Below, piece after piece: positions 14,708-40,444 of a DNA stretch of 64,000 nt. Under the pieces are notes generated by a model, which made no database searches, was not told the origin of the DNA, and saw only the letters and a list, made by a program, of their open reading frames with translations. The stretch comes from Candidatus Saccharimonadia bacterium (lineage in GTDB: Bacteria > Patescibacteriota > Saccharimonadia > UBA4664): contig DATIIV010000012.1 in the NCBI GenBank assembly GCA_035479295.1, forward strand, positions 65,010 through 129,009, read 5' to 3'. The translations under genes were made by a program, and so were the position numbers. The first letter of the stretch is position 1; every line of letters starts with the position of its first letter.

Positions 14708-15331
14708 ATGCTAAACGAACAAGAACTGATAGCCCGCGCCCAGGCCGATCCGCCGGCCTTTGGCGAACTATACGATCAGACCTATCCCAAGATCTCCAAC
14801 TACATTCTGCGCCGGGTGGGCGAGGTAGCGGTGGCTCAGGACCTGACGGCTGAGGTTTACATTAAGGCCATGCGCGGACTGCCGCGATACCAGTGGCGTG
14901 GGCTGCCGTTTACGGCTTGGCTCTATCGCATTGCGGCCAACGAGATTGCCGGCTACTTTCGGCGACAGCATCATGGCCTATTGTCGCTGGAGGCGTTGTA
15001 CGAGGAGCACCAGTTTGAGCCGGCCGCCGAGCTTGATCTGGAGCGCGAGCTGATCGAGAGGCAGCAGCAGGCCGAGCGCTACGCCGATTTCCGGCTGGTG
15101 CGCGATCTGCTGCAGCGGCTGCCGGCCAAGTACCAGGAAGTGCTGGCATTGCGCTACTTTGAACAGCAGCCGCTGGCCGATATCGTCATTATTACCGGCA
15201 AGAATCTTAATACCGTCAAGTCACTACTGATGCGTGGCCTGCAGCGCCTACGAACAGAGTATAATACCGCCAAAACTGCTACCCAGACGCAACCTCTGGC
15301 CCCGTCCCGCGTTATAGAGGCAGAGGAATAA
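14708..15331 (+). CDS. ECF-type RNA polymerase sigma-70 factor
   Basis: Region 2 (YIKAMRGLPRYQW...FTAWLYRIAANEI) and region 4 HTH (LPAKYQEVLALRYFEQQPLADIVIITGKNLNTVKSLLMRGLQRLR). Confidence 0.8.
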   Translation: MLNEQELIARAQADPPAFGELYDQTYPKISNYILRRVGEVAVAQDLTAEVYIKAMRGLPRYQWRGLPFTAWLYRIAANEIAGYFRRQHHGLLSLEALYEEHQFEPAAELDLERELIERQQQAERYADFRLVRDLLQRLPAKYQEVLALRYFEQQPLADIVIITGKNLNTVKSLLMRGLQRLRTEYNTAKTATQTQPLAPSRVIEAEE

Positions 15332-23530: not shown

Positions 23531-24283
23531 ATGGCCATTCCAATTCCTCTTACCGGAATCTCTCAGCTTCTCGACTGCATCTTTCTGTTTGTAGCCTGGA
23601 GTTTAGTGGGTCAGCGCCTTAAGCAGGCCGGCGACCAAGCTATCATCACGGTTGGCCATATTTACCGCTACTTTGGCTATTTTGTTCTTTTTAATATCTT
23701 CATGACACTACCATACGCGGTGCTCTACCTTCGCCCGGACTGGTTTCCGGCCGCTATGGGCTGGGGGTATGTGGTGGCTAATATATTCTTGGTTATCTCG
23801 CTCTCTCATTTGTCGCGAATGGTGGCGCAAATGGTGCCGCAGTGGAGCAGCAAAGAACCCCTCATTCATGGTCTTTGGGTGGTGATTAATGTGGTCCTGA
23901 CCGGCCTTAATGTGGTGTATGTGGCTATTCTGGCCCAGCCGGGCTACGATAACGCCAGCGGCGTGACGCGGTTCCACATCCCCGGCGGCCTGGGCGCCAC
24001 GCTGGGCATGATTAGCCTCTTGGCTTACTTGCCGGCGCTCGTGCTCTTCGTTATGAACGCCGTTAAGGGCCACGGTGATCAGCGCCGTCGATCGATCTTG
24101 CTGGCGGCCGGTATGCTGCTTATTATGGTGGTGGGGCCGCTGCACGCGGTAGCCGCTAACTGGGAGGTATTTTTGCTAGCCGACGCCCTCAATGTCGTCA
24201 GCTTGGTGCTATTAGCCGGCGGCGTGCTGTATCGTATTGGCTCCAGCCTGGCCGCTTCGCCCCAGCCGGCTTCGGTCCGCTAG
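23531..24283 (+). CDS. Polytopic membrane protein, paralog A (about 7 TM)
   Basis: 250 aa. Colinear similarity to the next gene (for example AMGWGYVVANIFL vs WMAWGYVVGHIFL, and a C-terminal YR(I/L)xxSL motif). Confidence 0.6.
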   Translation: MAIPIPLTGISQLLDCIFLFVAWSLVGQRLKQAGDQAIITVGHIYRYFGYFVLFNIFMTLPYAVLYLRPDWFPAAMGWGYVVANIFLVISLSHLSRMVAQMVPQWSSKEPLIHGLWVVINVVLTGLNVVYVAILAQPGYDNASGVTRFHIPGGLGATLGMISLLAYLPALVLFVMNAVKGHGDQRRRSILLAAGMLLIMVVGPLHAVAANWEVFLLADALNVVSLVLLAGGVLYRIGSSLAASPQPASVR

Positions 24284-24347: not shown

Positions 24348-25106
24348 ATGGACATCCCATTAACCGCCATAACAACCGCCATCGGCGTCCTCGTCATGTT
24401 TGGCGCCTGGTTCTTTGTGGGGCAGCGCATGAGGCAGAGCCACGTCGCCGTTCTGCGCCCCGTGCAGCTGTTCAACCAATTCTTTTTGAGCATGGCCGTC
24501 TTCTTTACCATCATGGCCGTGCCGCATATCTGGCTGTTCATCGACCCGAGCCAGTTCCCGATCTGGATGGCCTGGGGTTATGTGGTTGGCCACATTTTCT
24601 TGTACCTGGCCTTCATTAATATCATCCGCATGACCTTTACCATCGTGCCCAAGCTGACGCCCAAGGCGCCGTTGGCCGTAGGGGCCGCTATCGTCGTTAC
24701 CGTGGCGGTCACCATCATTAATGCCGTTACTATGATCTTTGGCACGCGCCCCAGCTACGACTACGTGCAGCATGTCACCCAGTTTAACGCCTCGCCGATT
24801 GTGGGCGCTTCCATTGGGATCTTTGCGGCGCTGGCGGTCTTTCCGCCGGCCATCTTATTTATTGTTAACGCCTTTAAGGCGCAGGGCAATCGGCGGGTGC
24901 GGTCGCTCATTCTGGGCATTGGGCTCATTTTGCTTATGACGGCTGGCCCACTGCACGATGTGGCCAAGAACTGGCAGACTTACATGCTGGCTGATATCTT
25001 CTCGATCTTGAGCATCATCGTCACCGGCACCGGCGTCGTCTACCGCCTGGAGCAGAGCCTCACCGTGGAGCCGCAGCCCGTGCCCGCCCCTACAGCTGGT
25101 CGATGA
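24348..25106 (+). CDS. Polytopic membrane protein, paralog B
   Basis: RBS AGGAAAAAGG. 252 aa. A tandem duplicate of 23531-24283. Confidence 0.6.
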   Translation: MDIPLTAITTAIGVLVMFGAWFFVGQRMRQSHVAVLRPVQLFNQFFLSMAVFFTIMAVPHIWLFIDPSQFPIWMAWGYVVGHIFLYLAFINIIRMTFTIVPKLTPKAPLAVGAAIVVTVAVTIINAVTMIFGTRPSYDYVQHVTQFNASPIVGASIGIFAALAVFPPAILFIVNAFKAQGNRRVRSLILGIGLILLMTAGPLHDVAKNWQTYMLADIFSILSIIVTGTGVVYRLEQSLTVEPQPVPAPTAGR

Positions 25107-27259: not shown

Positions 27260-29263
27260 TTATCGGAGTGAGGTTGGCGGTTTGGGTCGGCGCCATAGCC
27301 AGTGGTGCAGGGTTAGGCTGATGCCGCCGAGCAGGCCCAGGCTGAGGCCAATCAGCGAGGCGTTGACGGCCGTCTTGTTGCCCTTAAGCGGCGCAAAGAG
27401 TAGGTTGCGAATGGTCTGGAGGGGCGACAGGTTGTTCTGTACGTCGACGCGCCGGCTGGCTATTTGGGTCTGGCCGCTGGGCGTGGTGGTGACGGCCGTG
27501 ACGGTGTGCTGGCCGTTGGTGAGGTAGGTAGTGTCGAGCTGATTGCCAGTGGTAACGGGCGTGCCGTCGACTTTAATGATGGTGTGGCCGCGGCTGCCCG
27601 GCGTGCCCAGGCTGATGGTGCCGCCCACCACGGGCTGGGCACCGGCCGGAATGGGTACCGGCGTGCTGGTGCCGGGCGGCGTAATGGTAATGGGGTTGCC
27701 GCTGCCCGGCGCCGGGCTGGGCGAGGGGCTGGGGTTGGGCGGTGCCTGGGTCTGTACGGTGAGGTTGGCCCGGGCCGAGGCGTTGCCGGCGGCGTCGTAG
27801 GCCTCCACCTGAAAGGTGTAGTTGGTGGAGGCCGCCAGATTCTGGGCGAGGTAGCTGGTGCCGGCCTGGTCGGCCACGCGGCTGCCGCCCTGGTACACGC
27901 GGTAGCCGCGCACACCCACATTGTCGCTGGCGGCGTTCCAGGCCAGGCTAATCTGGGCGTTGGTAATGAGCGTGGCGCGCAGGCTGCCCGGCACCGACGG
28001 CGCCTGGGTGTCGCCGGGATTGGGCGTCGCGGTGGGCGGAGTCGTGGGCGTGGGAGTGTGGGTGGGCACCGGAGTTGGCGTGGGGGTATGAGTGGGGACG
28101 GGCGTGGGCGCTGTGGTTGGGGGAGGCGTTGGTGCGGGAGTGGTCGCGGCCAGGCTGTGGGCATAGTTCCAAATCAGCTGCCCCAGCGCATCGATGTTCG
28201 TGGGGTTGCCCGAGCTATTAACGGCCACATTGTAGAATGGCCCGCCGCCGTTCACAAACTCAAATCCGCTCAGGCCGTTGCCGTGCCAGGGCAGAATGCC
28301 CACGCCCAACCCCGGTGCCACGCTAAAGGCCGCCTGGGTGCCGGCCTGCAGCAGCGGGTTGTCGCCGGAGCTATCGCCATCGATCCAGCCGGTCTCGCCA
28401 ATCATCAGCGGCAGGTTTTGGCCGTGCATGGCCTGAATAAAGCTGCTTAGCTGGCTGCTCTTATTGGCCCAATTGCCATACACATGCACCGAGAACGCTA
28501 CATTACCGTAACTATTTTTTAACCCCGGTCCATACTGCAAAAAGGCGCTCTGACTATGCCAATCGCCGCCGTAACTCTGCTCCTGGCCGCAGTTTGAGCC
28601 ATCGTACACAATCATATTTTGGGCGCCGGTGGCTCGAATAGCACTCGAGTAATCGTTCATCATGTTGGTCCAGGTGCTGTCGGCATTGCCACTGCCAGGC
28701 TCATTATATAAGTTGAACCAGACGTAAGGATTCGTCTTGTAACGATTAGCTTTGTCGATCCACCAGGTCTTAATGGCGGCGTAGTCGGTGCCATTAACGT
28801 AACCGCAATCGGCACGGGGGTGCATGTCTATCATCACCACCATATGGCGGTTGGTGTACTCGGTGACGATGCCGTCCAGGTCGTTATTAACGCCCGAGAT
28901 GCCGGGGGTGACGCCGGCGTTGTACTGCGACGGATTCTCGGGGCCGCTGTCGAGCTCGCTGTTGAGGCGGATGATGTTCCACTTCCAGGCGGCCTGGGCC
29001 GGCCCGCTCTCGCCCAGGGTGGGGTTACCCCACACAAAGTGCGGCCCGTCCAAGTTGGTCCCCACCGGCGTAAAGACGGCGCCATTGGGGTCGATAATTT
29101 GCCAGCCGCTGAGGTGAAAAGTGCCGGCCGCGAGGCTGTGGCGCACCACGTACAGGCCCGCGACGACGGTGAGCGCCACCACCGCCGCCATGGCCACTAA
29201 GCTCCAGCGGCTGGTTAGTCGAAGACGCCCGAGAGCGATTTTGGAGCGGCGCTTACGCCTCAT
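27260..29263 (-). CDS. GH5-family glycoside hydrolase (cellulase-like), then a PT-rich linker, a fibronectin-III domain and a C-terminal TM anchor
   Basis: Start at MRRKRRSK... (29263) with a signal/TM segment. GH5 acid/base NEP (FNLYNEPG) and nucleophile (MIGETGW). PTPTP linker. FN3 (SLAWNAASDNVGVRGYRVYQ...YTFQVEAYDAAGN). C-terminal hydrophobic helix, then HHWLWRRPKPP. Confidence 0.8.
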   Translation of the reverse strand: MRRKRRSKIALGRLRLTSRWSLVAMAAVVALTVVAGLYVVRHSLAAGTFHLSGWQIIDPNGAVFTPVGTNLDGPHFVWGNPTLGESGPAQAAWKWNIIRLNSELDSGPENPSQYNAGVTPGISGVNNDLDGIVTEYTNRHMVVMIDMHPRADCGYVNGTDYAAIKTWWIDKANRYKTNPYVWFNLYNEPGSGNADSTWTNMMNDYSSAIRATGAQNMIVYDGSNCGQEQSYGGDWHSQSAFLQYGPGLKNSYGNVAFSVHVYGNWANKSSQLSSFIQAMHGQNLPLMIGETGWIDGDSSGDNPLLQAGTQAAFSVAPGLGVGILPWHGNGLSGFEFVNGGGPFYNVAVNSSGNPTNIDALGQLIWNYAHSLAATTPAPTPPPTTAPTPVPTHTPTPTPVPTHTPTPTTPPTATPNPGDTQAPSVPGSLRATLITNAQISLAWNAASDNVGVRGYRVYQGGSRVADQAGTSYLAQNLAASTNYTFQVEAYDAAGNASARANLTVQTQAPPNPSPSPSPAPGSGNPITITPPGTSTPVPIPAGAQPVVGGTISLGTPGSRGHTIIKVDGTPVTTGNQLDTTYLTNGQHTVTAVTTTPSGQTQIASRRVDVQNNLSPLQTIRNLLFAPLKGNKTAVNASLIGLSLGLLGGISLTLHHWLWRRPKPPTSLR

Positions 29264-29379
29264 TGTGGTCCCTATTAATGTGCTTATGATTATATACTGC
29301 CTGCCCAGCAGTTGACGAATGCGGTTAAATGGGGGATTATGGGCGGTGCCTTGTACCGAATGTACGGGAGTAATTAGAC

Positions 29380-30366
29380 GTGACAGCTTACGCAGAAGTG
29401 GCCGATGGCCACTGGGTCCGTCCCTCATTTAGCGCCTATGAACTTGAGGTGGCGGAGCGAATTCTAGCCGGCTATTCTCACAAGGTGTTGGCGCAGTGGC
29501 GTGCCCAATGCGTGGGCGCGGAACGAACGGATACGTCGATCACTTCGGTGCTGACTCGCTTGGGCCGGTTGGTTGCACGAGGCGATTCGATTCGCCTGAC
29601 GGTCATCATGGCGGAGCTGAGCTTAATTAAGCTGCCGAATGTGCAGCCCTGGGAAACTGATGCCTTGATGGAATCGGGCCTCAGTTTTGCCTGGGAACAG
29701 ATCCTGGAGCTGGCCATGAATGGCTGCAGCGCTCAACAGATCGCGACGAGGCTAAACCTCAGCTTCTCGCAGGTTCGAGGGCGGATCAGAATGTTACGCT
29801 ACTCCGGCGCGTTTAGGCAGTCTAGACTAATCCGACAGGTGGCAGTTTGGCTGACAACGAGATCTTTCATTCCGGACCGGCTTTCGAAGCGGCCGGTGGT
29901 TCAGGGGCCTCTGCTCTGGCATTACCTGATGGGCTACGATGAAGTGGAGACTCAGAGGCGACTTAACTGCGTCCCGTGGGTGGTGCCAACTTGGACAGCT
30001 CAAATGTTGACGCGCCTGAGAGAGACCTCGCTACTCAGAAGTTGTTTGGACGGCGTGAATAGCGGTAGGCTGCGGCTACCCTATCCACTGCGAGGATCCG
30101 TGGAGGCGCTGACTAAGCAGCCGCTTAGCTCTCGGTGCGTGGAGGAGCTGCGCGATCACGTGATGCGCGCTCGGAATATGACCCTTCAGCAGCAGGCTGC
30201 ACTACGTCAGCCTCAGCCTGATTGGCACGACATCTGTCGTGAGGTGCGCGTCGATACGCCCTGGCAGGCCCTGATGGTTGGGGCGGGTTATGTGTCTAGG
30301 CTAGATCAGTGTGGTGCTTTGGCGCCTCCGAACGCCTACAAGGGAGACGCACAGAATGGCAGCTAG
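29380..30366 (+). CDS. Protein of about 4 degenerate LuxR/GerE-type HTH repeats (no receiver or ligand-binding domain)
   Basis: GTG start with GGGAG upstream. Repeated xLSxxExxVxxLxxxGxSxxxIAxxLxLSxxTVxxHxxxIxxKLG-like blocks (for example FSAYELEVAERILAGYSHKVLAQ, FAWEQILELAMNGCSAQQIATRLNLSFSQVRGRIRML, GPLLWHYLMGY...). Confidence 0.55.
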   Translation: MTAYAEVADGHWVRPSFSAYELEVAERILAGYSHKVLAQWRAQCVGAERTDTSITSVLTRLGRLVARGDSIRLTVIMAELSLIKLPNVQPWETDALMESGLSFAWEQILELAMNGCSAQQIATRLNLSFSQVRGRIRMLRYSGAFRQSRLIRQVAVWLTTRSFIPDRLSKRPVVQGPLLWHYLMGYDEVETQRRLNCVPWVVPTWTAQMLTRLRETSLLRSCLDGVNSGRLRLPYPLRGSVEALTKQPLSSRCVEELRDHVMRARNMTLQQQAALRQPQPDWHDICREVRVDTPWQALMVGAGYVSRLDQCGALAPPNAYKGDAQNGS

Positions 30367-31258
30367 CGATCTCGCTTGGGAGAATCCCTCGGAGCGACAG
30401 ATCTGCCAGCTTGTACTGGAGGGGAACAGCATACTTGGCATTGCCGAGCAGCTGGGACTGAGCCCCGGTGGCGTCAGAAGCAAGCTCAACCGAGTTCATA
30501 CCAGAACTGGCATTCACGGCCGGTCAGCGATGATCTTAGCGCTGACCGAAGCGGGCGTTCTAACCGTGCCGATCAGCCGAGCCCAGCAGCTAAAGACCTC
30601 TCCGGCGGTAATTCAATCTGACCCTTTCTGGTTGTTGCTAGCGGAGATATCGATGCTGGACGTCAGTCTCGGCTGGCTCAACAGTGCCTCTGGTCGCTCG
30701 GTTAAGCAGATTGACAAGCTGTGTGGCCGAGTTACTCGATTAATGCATAAGGCACACCCGGGTAGGTCCGTGCTTAACCAGATGGCAATCGATCGTGCTA
30801 TCCTGGGATCGATCCAACTGCCGCAGGCATCTCAACTGCAGCTGGTTTGGGGGCCGCTGCTATGGTACCTGCTGATGGGCTATGCGCCGCAGGAAATAGC
30901 CCTTGCTCTTTGCAAGAAAGGTTGGGTGATACCGGCGAAGAGATTAGTGGATCAATGGCTGGTGCGTTTGTGGAAGCAATGCGGCAGCGCTGGTGTGGCC
31001 CCGACACTCGTGCGGCTCGTGCGGCAGCGTCAGGTGCAGCTGCCCTATGTGCTGCAGCGGGCCACTGATCGGCTGAAGTTCATGGTGCCGGATGCTGCGC
31101 TGAGCGAGCAGTTAGATCAATGTTACGATACACTGGTGCGGCGGAGTCTGCCGCTGGGCGTTAACCTTAAAGACCAGTTTGGGCTCTGCGACCGCCTGGG
31201 AGTGGCCAATCCCTGGCAGGCTATGTTGGTGGCCGCCTATTTGGGGCGGCTGCGGTAA
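30356..31258 (+). CDS. Paralogous multi-LuxR-HTH repeat protein
   Basis: ATG 30356 (MAASDLAWENPSERQICQLVLEGNSILGIAEQLGLSPGGVRSKLNRVHTRTGI, a clean LuxR-type HTH). Overlaps the upstream paralog by 11 nt. Confidence 0.6.
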   Translation: MAASDLAWENPSERQICQLVLEGNSILGIAEQLGLSPGGVRSKLNRVHTRTGIHGRSAMILALTEAGVLTVPISRAQQLKTSPAVIQSDPFWLLLAEISMLDVSLGWLNSASGRSVKQIDKLCGRVTRLMHKAHPGRSVLNQMAIDRAILGSIQLPQASQLQLVWGPLLWYLLMGYAPQEIALALCKKGWVIPAKRLVDQWLVRLWKQCGSAGVAPTLVRLVRQRQVQLPYVLQRATDRLKFMVPDAALSEQLDQCYDTLVRRSLPLGVNLKDQFGLCDRLGVANPWQAMLVAAYLGRLR

Positions 31259-31260
31259 CT

Positions 31261-31303
31261 AGGGCGGGGAGGCATTCGTGCCTCCCCGCCCTTAACCATT
31301 TTT
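31261..31303 (+). terminator. Strong rho-independent terminator (14-bp stem AGGGCGGGGAGGCA / TGCCTCCCCGCCCT with a TTCG tetraloop, then a T5 run)
   Basis: Lies between convergent genes. The U-tract is on the plus strand only. Confidence 0.75.
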
Positions 31304-31315
31304 AGGCGTCGCTTG

Positions 31316-32113
31316 CTACACCTCCACCGTCTTTATCGTCCACATATCCCAGGCCAGGCCGCGATTGCCCAGGTAGGCGAACGGCAGGTAAAAATACCCC
31401 TTATCGCCCCAACCGGTGCCCCAAGAGTTGCGGCCAATGAACTGCTGCTTGGTCTGGTCGTAGCCCACAATCAGTACGGCGTGGCCGCCCAGCAGTTTCT
31501 CGCTCTTGTGGGGCAGAGGAATGACGCCGGTCGTATTAGCGGCTGGGCTCTCAAAGCTCTCATACACTGAGATACCGGTAATGAACGGGTAGCCGCTAGC
31601 TAGGCAGGCCAGCATATCGCCGAAGGGATTGAGGTGATGGGTGACGATGCGCTGATAGGTAAGGGCTTGATTTTTTTCGGCTTCATCAAAGCACTTTTTG
31701 GTAGGCTTAACGGTAAACTTGGTAATGTCGTAAGGCCAATCCGTCTCGGGTGCGCTCCCAATCTTAACGAGAACTTTAACACCATCGCGCAGCCGGGCGC
31801 CGGCATCGCTGTTAACCGTGCCTTCCACATCGCGCTCGTTCCAGTAAATAAAAAGACGGCTCGGTGTCATAAAGGCCTTGCCCTCTTGGTGGCGGTCAAA
31901 GTCGAAAGCGGCGGCCAGCGCGTTAGCGGTGCAGCTGCCCAAGTGGCCTTGGTTGTAAATGGGCGGACATTTGTGGCGCAGATCGGCCTGGGGCGGCAGG
32001 GGAGCGGCTACTTGGGCTAGGGCGGCCGTGCCGTCAAAGATGTGGTCCCGTTGGTCGGGTAGGTCGGGTAGCCAGCCGAGGCCGTGGTTTTGAGGAGTAA
32101 CGTTGTGTGCCAT
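31316..32113 (-). CDS. Papain-like cysteine peptidase (C1 family), no signal peptide
   Basis: Catalytic Cys in QGHLGSCTANALAAAF, His in GGHAVLIVGYD, Asn in RNSWGTGWGDKGYF. 265 aa. Confidence 0.85.
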   Translation of the reverse strand: MAHNVTPQNHGLGWLPDLPDQRDHIFDGTAALAQVAAPLPPQADLRHKCPPIYNQGHLGSCTANALAAAFDFDRHQEGKAFMTPSRLFIYWNERDVEGTVNSDAGARLRDGVKVLVKIGSAPETDWPYDITKFTVKPTKKCFDEAEKNQALTYQRIVTHHLNPFGDMLACLASGYPFITGISVYESFESPAANTTGVIPLPHKSEKLLGGHAVLIVGYDQTKQQFIGRNSWGTGWGDKGYFYLPFAYLGNRGLAWDMWTIKTVEV

Positions 32114-39658: not shown

Positions 39659-40444
39659 CTATGCCTCCACGAGCTTGATGGTCCACAGATCGGAGGTCAG
39701 CTCGCGATCGGTGAGGTAGGCGAGCGGCAGGTAAAAGTAGCCGGCGTCGCCCCAGCGCTTGCCCCACGAGTTGCGGCAGATGAAGTAGCCAGCGGCCATG
39801 TCGTAGCCCACCACCAGGATGGCGTGGCCACCCAGGAGCTCCTCGTTGGGCTTCGGCACGGGAATGACGCCGGTGCGGTTGGCCTCGTCGCTCTCAAAGC
39901 TGGCGTAGACCGCGATGCCGGCCACGAACGGGCGGCCGGCCGCCAAGCAGCTGCGCATGTTGGTGTCGTCGCTCGTTACCTTGATGCGAGCGTACGACAG
40001 CACCTGGTTGGAGAGCGCGTCAGCGTAGCACTGGGCGGACGGCTTGACGGTGAAGCGGCTGATGTCGTACAGCCACTCGCTCTCGGGCGGCACGCCCAGC
40101 TTGGCCAGAACCTTCATGCCGTCGCGAAGGTAGGCGCCGGCGTCGGTGTCGACGGTGCCCTCGCGTGCGCGCTCATTGTAGTAAATGAACAGCCGGCTCG
40201 GGCCGATGGGCTCCTGACCCTGCCGGCGACGCTCCATGTCGTAGGCCGCCGCCAGCGCGTTGGCGGTGCAGCTGCCCAGCTGGCCCTGGTCGTACACGTC
40301 CGGGCAGTCCGGGCGCAGGTCGATGCTATTGGGCAGCTGCGAGGGGCGGATGTCTAGGCCGGCGCGGTCGAACTTGTGGTCGCGGGGGTCGCGCGGATCG
40401 GGGATATTCCCGAGGCCGTGGCCGCGGGGCGTTACGAGCGCCAT
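39659..40444 (-). CDS. Papain-like cysteine peptidase (C1 family), paralog of 31316-32113
   Basis: QGQLGSCTANALAAAY, GGHAILVVGYD, RNSWGKRWGDAGYF. Roughly half of positions are identical to the other copy on reading the two side by side. No signal peptide. Confidence 0.85.
   Translation of the reverse strand: MALVTPRGHGLGNIPDPRDPRDHKFDRAGLDIRPSQLPNSIDLRPDCPDVYDQGQLGSCTANALAAAYDMERRRQGQEPIGPSRLFIYYNERAREGTVDTDAGAYLRDGMKVLAKLGVPPESEWLYDISRFTVKPSAQCYADALSNQVLSYARIKVTSDDTNMRSCLAAGRPFVAGIAVYASFESDEANRTGVIPVPKPNEELLGGHAILVVGYDMAAGYFICRNSWGKRWGDAGYFYLPLAYLTDRELTSDLWTIKLVEA

Follow-up and report, generated by a model that had tools for sequence, protein, structure and literature searches.

How far can a whole protein be built from copies of the LuxR/GerE-type helix-turn-helix (HTH) domain, and how far can the copies decay before routine annotation loses them? 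The question is raised by two neighbouring genes, p1 and p2, in a stretch of 64,000 nucleotides (nt) from a Candidatus Saccharimonadia bacterium (contig DATIIV010000012.1, forward-strand positions 65,010 to 129,009), referred to as the window and numbered from its first letter. A sequence-only reading of the window had proposed that both proteins consist solely of degenerate LuxR-type units, three to four recognisable ones in each. The interpretation reached here, held with about even confidence, is that p1 and p2 form an operon of two decayed, four-unit, LuxR/GerE-derived proteins that are paralogous, basic, all-helical and cytoplasmic. The four-unit LuxR-derived build itself is fairly likely, and it appears at the level of the family rather than in each sequence.

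The p1 gene (29380–30366, forward strand, GTG start) encodes 328 amino acids (aa) and is named ‘hypothetical protein’ by NCBI; p2 (30356–31258, forward strand, ATG start) encodes 300 aa and is named ‘LuxR C-terminal-related transcriptional regulator’ (HSX02238.1). Products of 328 and 300 aa are also given by independent gene callers in the public record. The genes overlap by 11 nt, the p2 ATG lying at 30356 and the p1 stop codon at 30364–30366, and the ribosome-binding site of p2 (GGGAGA, 30342–30347, forward strand) is found inside the 3′ end of p1, 8–9 nt upstream of the ATG. The earlier description of two tandem, overlapping paralogues is thus confirmed in its coordinates, overlap and ribosome-binding site, and in a BLASTP alignment the C-terminal 146 aa of the two proteins are 26% identical (E 1e-9).

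Relatives are scarce, and the family is best seen as a tiny branch of the LuxR/GerE HTH superfamily that is restricted to one lineage. Among 1.84 billion representative proteins searched with HMMER, the family has two further members only, both from metagenomic loci: P0003 (302 aa, E 9e-43), on contig L004 of an IMG metagenome, and P0004 (118 aa), encoded by the 3′ portion of a gene on L005, an ENA contig at 1.9x coverage. Mending a 1-nt frameshift near 845–855 of L005 (tgggcc instead of the expected tggggcc), which is probably an assembly error rather than the mark of a pseudogene, regains a 300-aa protein, L005fix. This protein has 31% identity to p2 (E 6e-28), 28% to P0003 and 21% over 301 aa to p1 (E 4e-7). 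As it matches the other members over its full length, p1 and p2 are collinear homologues, each with units A to D. All four family members are basic, with an isoelectric point (pI) of 9.3–9.9 (9.5–9.9 for p1 and p2).

Standard domain libraries recognise little of this build. In a Pfam scan at E values up to 10, GerE (PF00196, gathering score 23.5 bits) is the best or near-best match for both proteins, and each whole protein has one match to it below threshold: a partial one of 20.3 bits at aa 107–129 in p1, and one of 22.0 bits at aa 13–60 in p2. A HMMER search with this same model had been set beforehand as the test of the repeat claim, which was to fall if each protein gave only one match and the remainder was unrelated sequence. 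On the first of these two counts the claim fails: a single sub-threshold match per protein is what was found, and Pfam does not see the three to four recognisable units. Run on the multi-GerE positive controls P0005, P0006 and P0007, this tool does report several GerE stretches (2, 4 and 2). Since all of these stretches are reported, it is able to detect true multi-GerE proteins, and p1 and p2, with one stretch each, do not show the two or more GerE domains of such proteins. As an isolated unit, p2 unit A reaches 24.6 bits, just above the cut-off; the unit quoted as the ‘cleanest’ by the sequence-only reading is residues 13–53 of p2. Isolated p1 unit B scores 18.0 bits, under the cut-off, P0003 scores 14.1 bits, and L005fix has no GerE match. 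Weak Sigma70_r4_2 matches are also seen in unit A, while NCBIfam, PHROGs and PADLOC return HTH-level signals only, on p2 unit A and p1 unit B. The absence of a receiver, autoinducer-binding or other non-HTH domain stands in all four libraries: the autoinducer-binding domain PF03472 is absent from the Pfam matches at E up to 10, and the receiver domain PF00072 has no match in Pfam or NCBIfam.

Signals beyond the single domain match are seen when profiles are compared. A GerE reference profile was made from the eight clean GerE units of P0005–P0007, and the family was divided into unit profiles. Against the reference, hhalign scores unit profile A at 58.8 (probability 97.5%, E 8e-12, 56 columns), B at 26.7 (probability 61%) and C at 20.2 (probability 15%). 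Among the family units themselves, A and C align at 26.7 (probability 57%) with 52 columns in register, A and B at 20.5, and B and C at 19.0. All unit-profile comparisons except those of D beat 100 column shuffles, and their register is mutually consistent. A harder null is provided by 162 real 75-aa segments from other open reading frames (ORFs) of the window, with a 99th percentile of 14.6 and a maximum of 18.6. Unit A exceeds this maximum in all four members (70.4 in p2, with a probability of 98%, 26.4 in P0003, 23.2 in p1 and 20.9 in L005fix). Unit B scores 38.0 in p1 (probability 94%) and 16.2 in L005fix, unit C 16.4 in P0003 and about 10 in the other three, and unit D 20.3 in L005fix and 11 or less in the others. 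When the family profile is aligned with itself, a two-unit shift that places A–B on C–D scores 28.6 over 104 columns and a one-unit shift 27.7 over 127 columns. None of 200 controls reaches these values, the highest scores being 17.3 when columns were shuffled (100 controls) and 21.9 when blocks of 12 columns were (100 controls).

The units, all on the forward strand, differ in what they retain. In p1, unit A (29380–29637, aa 1–86) is LuxR-like over helices 1–2 only, with an insertion ahead of helix 3, and has no Pfam match; unit B (29638–29877, aa 87–166) is the best HTH of the protein, with the basic recognition helix SFSQVRGRIRMLR; unit C (29878–30081, aa 167–234) opens with a GPLLWHYLMGY block (nt 29905–29937); and unit D (30082–30363, aa 235–328) ends in VRVDTPWQALMVGAGYVSRL and a 20-aa tail. 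In p2, unit A (30356–30571, aa 1–72) is a near-canonical LuxR/GerE four-helix HTH, and unit B (30572–30823, aa 73–156) is assigned via position-for-position homology with p1 unit B. Unit C of p2 (30824–31045, aa 157–230) carries GPLLWYLLMGYAPQEIALAL (block at nt 30851–30883), and unit D (31046–31255, aa 231–300) ends in LCDRLGVANPWQAMLVAAYLGRL, which resembles the end of helix 3 and helix 4 of LuxR HTHs. Units A–C each finish in a hydrophobic-x-L-P linker. Unit C retains the helix 1–2 pattern (LLMGYxxxEIAxxL), and unit D is left with just a C-terminal LGVxNxWQAxLVA motif, like helices 3–4 of LuxR domains. In LuxR units, the stretch that aligns to the GPLLW...MGY block is EVLxLLxxGxSxxEIA. Either protein has the block a single time, where unit C begins (aa 176–186 in p1, aa 166–176 in p2); what had been taken for repeated blocks is therefore conservation between the paralogues and not an internal repeat.

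Comparison of single units gives z 11.5 for the two C units, z 7.9 for the two D units and z 7.65 for p1 unit B with p2 unit A. In position p1 unit B corresponds to p2 unit B, but its resemblance is to p2 unit A, so that the A and B positions are both LuxR-type. In alignments, basic residues persist in unit A of p2 and unit B of p1 at the places where the helices of NarL and GerE touch DNA. The net charge of units B and C is strongly basic in p1 and p2, and acidic in units B and C of P0003 and unit B of L005fix.

Structure prediction had been proposed as a check and agrees with the four-unit build in outline. The AlphaFold models, made from 2 and 4 sequences, have 16–17 helices each, in roughly four groups of four; in the AF2 model of p2, unit B comprises four helices of 11, 8, 18 and 14 residues, and unit D has a predicted local distance difference test (pLDDT) score of 68–83. 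The top PDB matches found by Foldseek for both AF2 models are the HTH domains of GerE, DegU, TraR, LiaR and DosR. For the p2 model, the top 21 PDB matches are all LuxR-type HTH domains (E about 0.1), and GerE (1fse) is matched with a template modelling (TM) score of 0.83–0.88 and a root-mean-square deviation (rmsd) of 1.0 Å over 62 columns. We infer that these 1fse matches of the whole-protein model belong to unit A, where pLDDT is 63–83. Searches of PDB sequences with the profiles of units B, C and D found nothing relevant. The sole PDB match of the unit profiles, the ‘CAP repeat’ 8vd6, was discarded as a de novo designed repeat protein (PMC12339374).

A body of results pulls the other way and has to be set against the four-unit interpretation. 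The AlphaFold models are poor overall (pLDDT 39 and 54, with 2 and 4 input sequences respectively), and the Foldseek output comes without query coordinates for the matched part. Six of the eight isolated units of p1 and p2 have no Pfam match at all, and no pair of units within any single protein is significantly similar. Taken singly, units B, C and D of p2 do not rise above the null when compared with the GerE units, and p2 unit B, with 9.4, is by itself not LuxR-like; the match of P0003 unit B (19.1) is out of register with that of p1 unit B. Unit profile D scores only 10.5 against the reference, a value reached by 5 of 100 shuffles (z 2.0), its 14-column match being in register and not significant. 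The family and unit profiles are built on four sequences only. Column shuffling destroys helical periodicity and therefore flatters any helix-helix comparison, a bias that the block shuffle corrects only in part. Recognition-helix residues vary across the family, P0003 having AAQALMQQAPY at this place. The claim that these proteins consist of degenerate LuxR-type units only is partly supported: its core holds in the sensitive comparisons of unit A, p1 unit B, the A–C register and the self-alignment, but in p2 unit A alone can be recognised individually, and of unit D just a motif is left.

Known proteins offer partial parallels. GerE of B. subtilis and the other stand-alone LuxR/GerE HTHs (PF00196) are likewise four-helix HTHs without a sensor domain, and the GerE-type pattern LxxRExxVxxLxxxGxSxxxIAxxLxxSxxTVxxHxxxIxxKLGVxNRxxA can be made out in unit A of p2 and unit B of p1. 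GerE, however, is a single unit of 74 aa, whereas p1 and p2 have 300–328 aa with three further decayed units. One LuxR-type HTH per protein is indeed the norm, as the sequence-only reading held, but not a rule: P0005 and P0007, with two clean GerE domains each, and P0006, with four, likewise consist of LuxR-type units only and are uncharacterised. P0006 (L006, 5001–5972; 323 aa, four units) has the size and unit count of p1 and p2. The units of these three proteins are clean (104–196 bits) and each is reported, whereas those of p1 and p2 are degenerate, and the p1/p2 family is not collinear with P0006, the best hhalign probability being 37% over one unit. All three are metagenomic proteins, unnamed or generically named. 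A literature search on proteins with tandem or multiple GerE/LuxR HTHs found nothing relevant.

Two further comparisons lie outside the LuxR family. Sulfolobus Cbp1 is a small protein that binds the repeats of CRISPR (clustered regularly interspaced short palindromic repeats) and has three imperfect tandem HTH repeats. Only this concept of imperfect tandem HTH repeats is common to Cbp1 (NF040595) and the present proteins: p1 matches NF040595 at 16.6 bits over one unit, against a cut-off of 140, and is no member; Cbp1 is an archaeal protein with another HTH class, and there is no CRISPR array at p1–p2. Region 4 of sigma-70 factors is a LuxR-like HTH, and sigma-70 factors are likewise multi-domain and all-helical, with an HTH related to LuxR. 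Their HTH is C-terminal, whereas that of p1 and p2 is N-terminal. Kinship with sigma factors was rejected: region 2 (PF04542) is missing from p1 and p2, and hhalign against the extracytoplasmic function (ECF) sigma factor encoded in the window (14708–15331) gives a probability of 0.1%.

The two genes look like a compact two-gene operon, an arrangement suggested by a promoter, ribosome-binding sites, the gene overlap and a hairpin. The putative promoter (29312–29340, forward strand) is sigma-70-like and consists of TTGACG, 17 nt and GATTAT, matched by consensus only; a ribosome-binding site, GGGAG (29366–29370, forward strand), precedes the p1 GTG. Downstream, a 14-bp GC-rich hairpin (31261–31292) lies between the convergent genes for p2 and a C1 peptidase. 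Its predicted RNA fold has −32.2 kcal/mol (z −6.5; none of 200 shuffles is as low), and it is probably a bidirectional terminator, which a consensus terminator scan missed because the T run is interrupted. On the other side, a promoter-like sequence for a divergent GH5 gene is found on the reverse strand (TCGTCA, 29318–29313; TATAAT, 29294–29289), again by consensus match only. The two putative promoters are back-to-back with one common −35 region (TTGACGA, 29312–29318), and both hexamers of the putative p1–p2 promoter are kept in the related contig L005. A 24-nt block, ATTAATGTGCTTATGATTATATAC, which spans the −10 element and 5′ leader of the GH5 gene, is identical in the window (29274–29297) and L005 (251–274). 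Just upstream of the common −35 region lies a dyad, ACTGC-N7-GCAGT (29296–29312), at whose place L005 carries another palindrome, AACCGGTT; the dyad may be an operator that varies in step with the regulator, or a product of chance.

The cassette is a hypervariable island between conserved flanks. DNA flanking p1–p2 is 75–92% identical to that of L004 and L005, the cassette DNA only 35–59%, and the identity changes sharply near 29350 and 31180. L004 has, in order, the C-terminus of a p1-like gene, P0003 and an opposite-strand C1 peptidase gene; L005 has the start of the GH5 gene, the same intergenic region and then the family gene. As the carriers are near relatives, this gene order is uninformative about function. 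Between relatives the C1 peptidase has 92.5% protein identity, with 0.80 synonymous (dS) and 0.046 non-synonymous (dN) substitutions per site; for p2 and P0003, dN is 0.59, about 13 times that of the C1 peptidase neighbour, and dS is saturated. Despite this saturation, dN/dS of the family genes is about 0.2–0.5. With dN below dS, the genes, judged from four sequences, are constrained but evolving very fast, or their alleles are exchanged. The ORFs are intact in three lineages, except for the 1-nt frameshift of L005. Word-index protein searches returned the query proteins themselves only, and scans of genome and metagenome contigs with the GPLLW unit profile and the 24-nt promoter block found nothing.

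How else could these proteins be explained? One alternative, the case that the sequence-only reading itself had named as its refutation, is that one LuxR-type HTH per protein is fused to an unrelated, lineage-specific helical domain and the repeats are generic helix-helix similarity. It accounts for the single sub-threshold GerE match, for the six of eight units without a Pfam match, for the lack of a significant unit pair inside one protein, and for units B, C and D of p2 lying at null level with a unit D profile that is not significant. It sits badly with p1, where two distinct units, A and B, each exceed the real-segment null, with the resemblance of p1 unit B to p2 unit A that makes both positions LuxR-type, with the 52 columns of A and C in register, and with a self-alignment that beats block shuffles keeping local helices; it is rather unlikely. 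A second proposal lets all four units touch DNA, so that each protein, as a monomer, would use several HTHs to read one long site that is asymmetric or made of tandem repeats. Cbp1, the R1R2R3 repeats of Myb and the domains of sigma factors are analogues for such a reader, and the four-unit build, the overall basic pI and the strongly basic character of units B and C in both p1 and p2, the weak Cbp1 match of p1 and the existence of clean proteins with four GerE domains speak for it. Yet the charge per unit is not conserved, P0003 and L005fix having acidic units, unit D is without the helix 2–helix 3 region, the Cbp1 score is far under its cut-off, and the intergenic regions flanking p1–p2 hold no tandem DNA repeats of suitable period; this proposal is improbable.

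A third view, that the HTH-derived units no longer bind DNA, would have the proteins work by contacting other proteins: the dimerisation helix that they retain might, for instance, serve to titrate a LuxR/NarL-type regulator or RNA polymerase. The best conserved motifs, GPLLW...GY and LGVxNxWQAxLVA (helix 4), are structural, recognition helices vary freely, and the neighbourhood contains several orphan response regulators and kinases; against this stand the basic residues kept at NarL/GerE DNA-contact positions in p2 unit A and p1 unit B and the basic character of every family member, and such a role is quite doubtful. That p1 and p2 are functionless orphan ORFs, spurious or in decay, is scarcely credible: extreme rarity, very fast divergence and the L005 frameshift would fit, but in three lineages reading frames of ~300 aa have stayed open although divergence is saturating, dN is below dS, a promoter, ribosome-binding sites and a terminator are predicted, and the contig with the frameshift has only 1.9x coverage. 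A speculative view, of low probability, is that p1–p2 is a hypervariable specificity module: a pair of modular multi-HTH DNA readers whose units would diversify or be swapped between strains while the flanks stay nearly identical, in a repressor- or immunity-like role or in control of the secreted hydrolases that the episymbiont uses on its host.

The neighbourhood adds context. The GH5 glycosidase and C1 peptidase genes are the only conserved neighbours, and in very close relatives only; around p1–p2 lie kinases, response regulators, hydrolases and glucose-6-phosphate dehydrogenase (G6PD). A proposed link to ‘synthase-like cassettes’ finds no support, as Pfam detects no gene of synthase type up to about 10 kb away, nor in the other ORFs of the window that were scanned. 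An origin of p1 and p2 from phage or plasmid was rejected, with no tblastn match and HTH-level signals only in PHROGs and PADLOC. The start of the GH5 cellulase-like gene (27260–29428, reverse strand) is ambiguous: its ORF reaches 29428, overlapping the p1 start, while gene callers place the start at 29191 (643 aa) or 29263 (667 aa), and the ATG at 29263, followed by a basic and then a hydrophobic stretch, is conserved in L005. The window has two C1 (papain-like) peptidase genes on the reverse strand about 8 kb apart (31316–32113 and 39659–40444), the second with ~68% DNA identity to the L004 counterpart of the first. Another pair of tandem paralogues (23531–24283 and 24348–25106, forward strand; 37% identity over 242 aa) has no Pfam match; the products are hydrophobic, probably membrane proteins, and a PAS histidine kinase gene adjoins them. 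The window is dense in two-component signalling, with at least three kinases and at least four single-domain response regulators, and its GC content of about 0.49–0.65 across 2-kb bins is high for a Saccharimonadia genome.

On the interpretation of p1–p2 as an operon of decayed four-unit LuxR/GerE-derived proteins, a four-helix LuxR-type HTH was most likely duplicated internally to give four tandem units of about 70–85 aa each. The units would then have decayed unevenly, p2 keeping a near-canonical HTH in A, and p1 its best in B and a partial one in A; only one or two copies per protein still appear functional. Most likely the genes encode a co-transcribed pair of DNA-binding regulators in which DNA would be read by the retained HTHs; the units that have decayed probably provide a helical scaffold or a surface for oligomerisation. 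As recognition helices are not conserved in the family, DNA binding may not be general. The C-terminal helix 4 mediates dimerisation in GerE-type proteins, and a dimer contact may be made by the C-terminal helix that unit D has kept. p1 and p2 may act as a homo- or hetero-oligomer, and the gene overlap may provide translational coupling and hence a fixed proportion of the two. The first candidate target would be their own back-to-back promoter region, common with the GH5 glycosidase gene.

p1 and p2 are strongly degenerate, unusual members of an ordinary regulator family and no new kind of system; beyond the divergence pattern, they are most likely an ordinary lineage-specific pair of transcription regulators. 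If the four-unit interpretation is true, a standard LuxR-type module has been multiplied and then decayed into a new all-helical scaffold, and such proteins can slip below routine domain annotation, as with the ‘hypothetical’ p1. If the specificity module were true, it would be a naturally occurring repeat-HTH scaffold that can be re-targeted rapidly. The most unusual feature of p1–p2 is its behaviour as a hypervariable island: conserved flanks around a nearly unalignable cassette point to unusual evolutionary pressure on this locus, in an episymbiotic lineage that is poorly understood.

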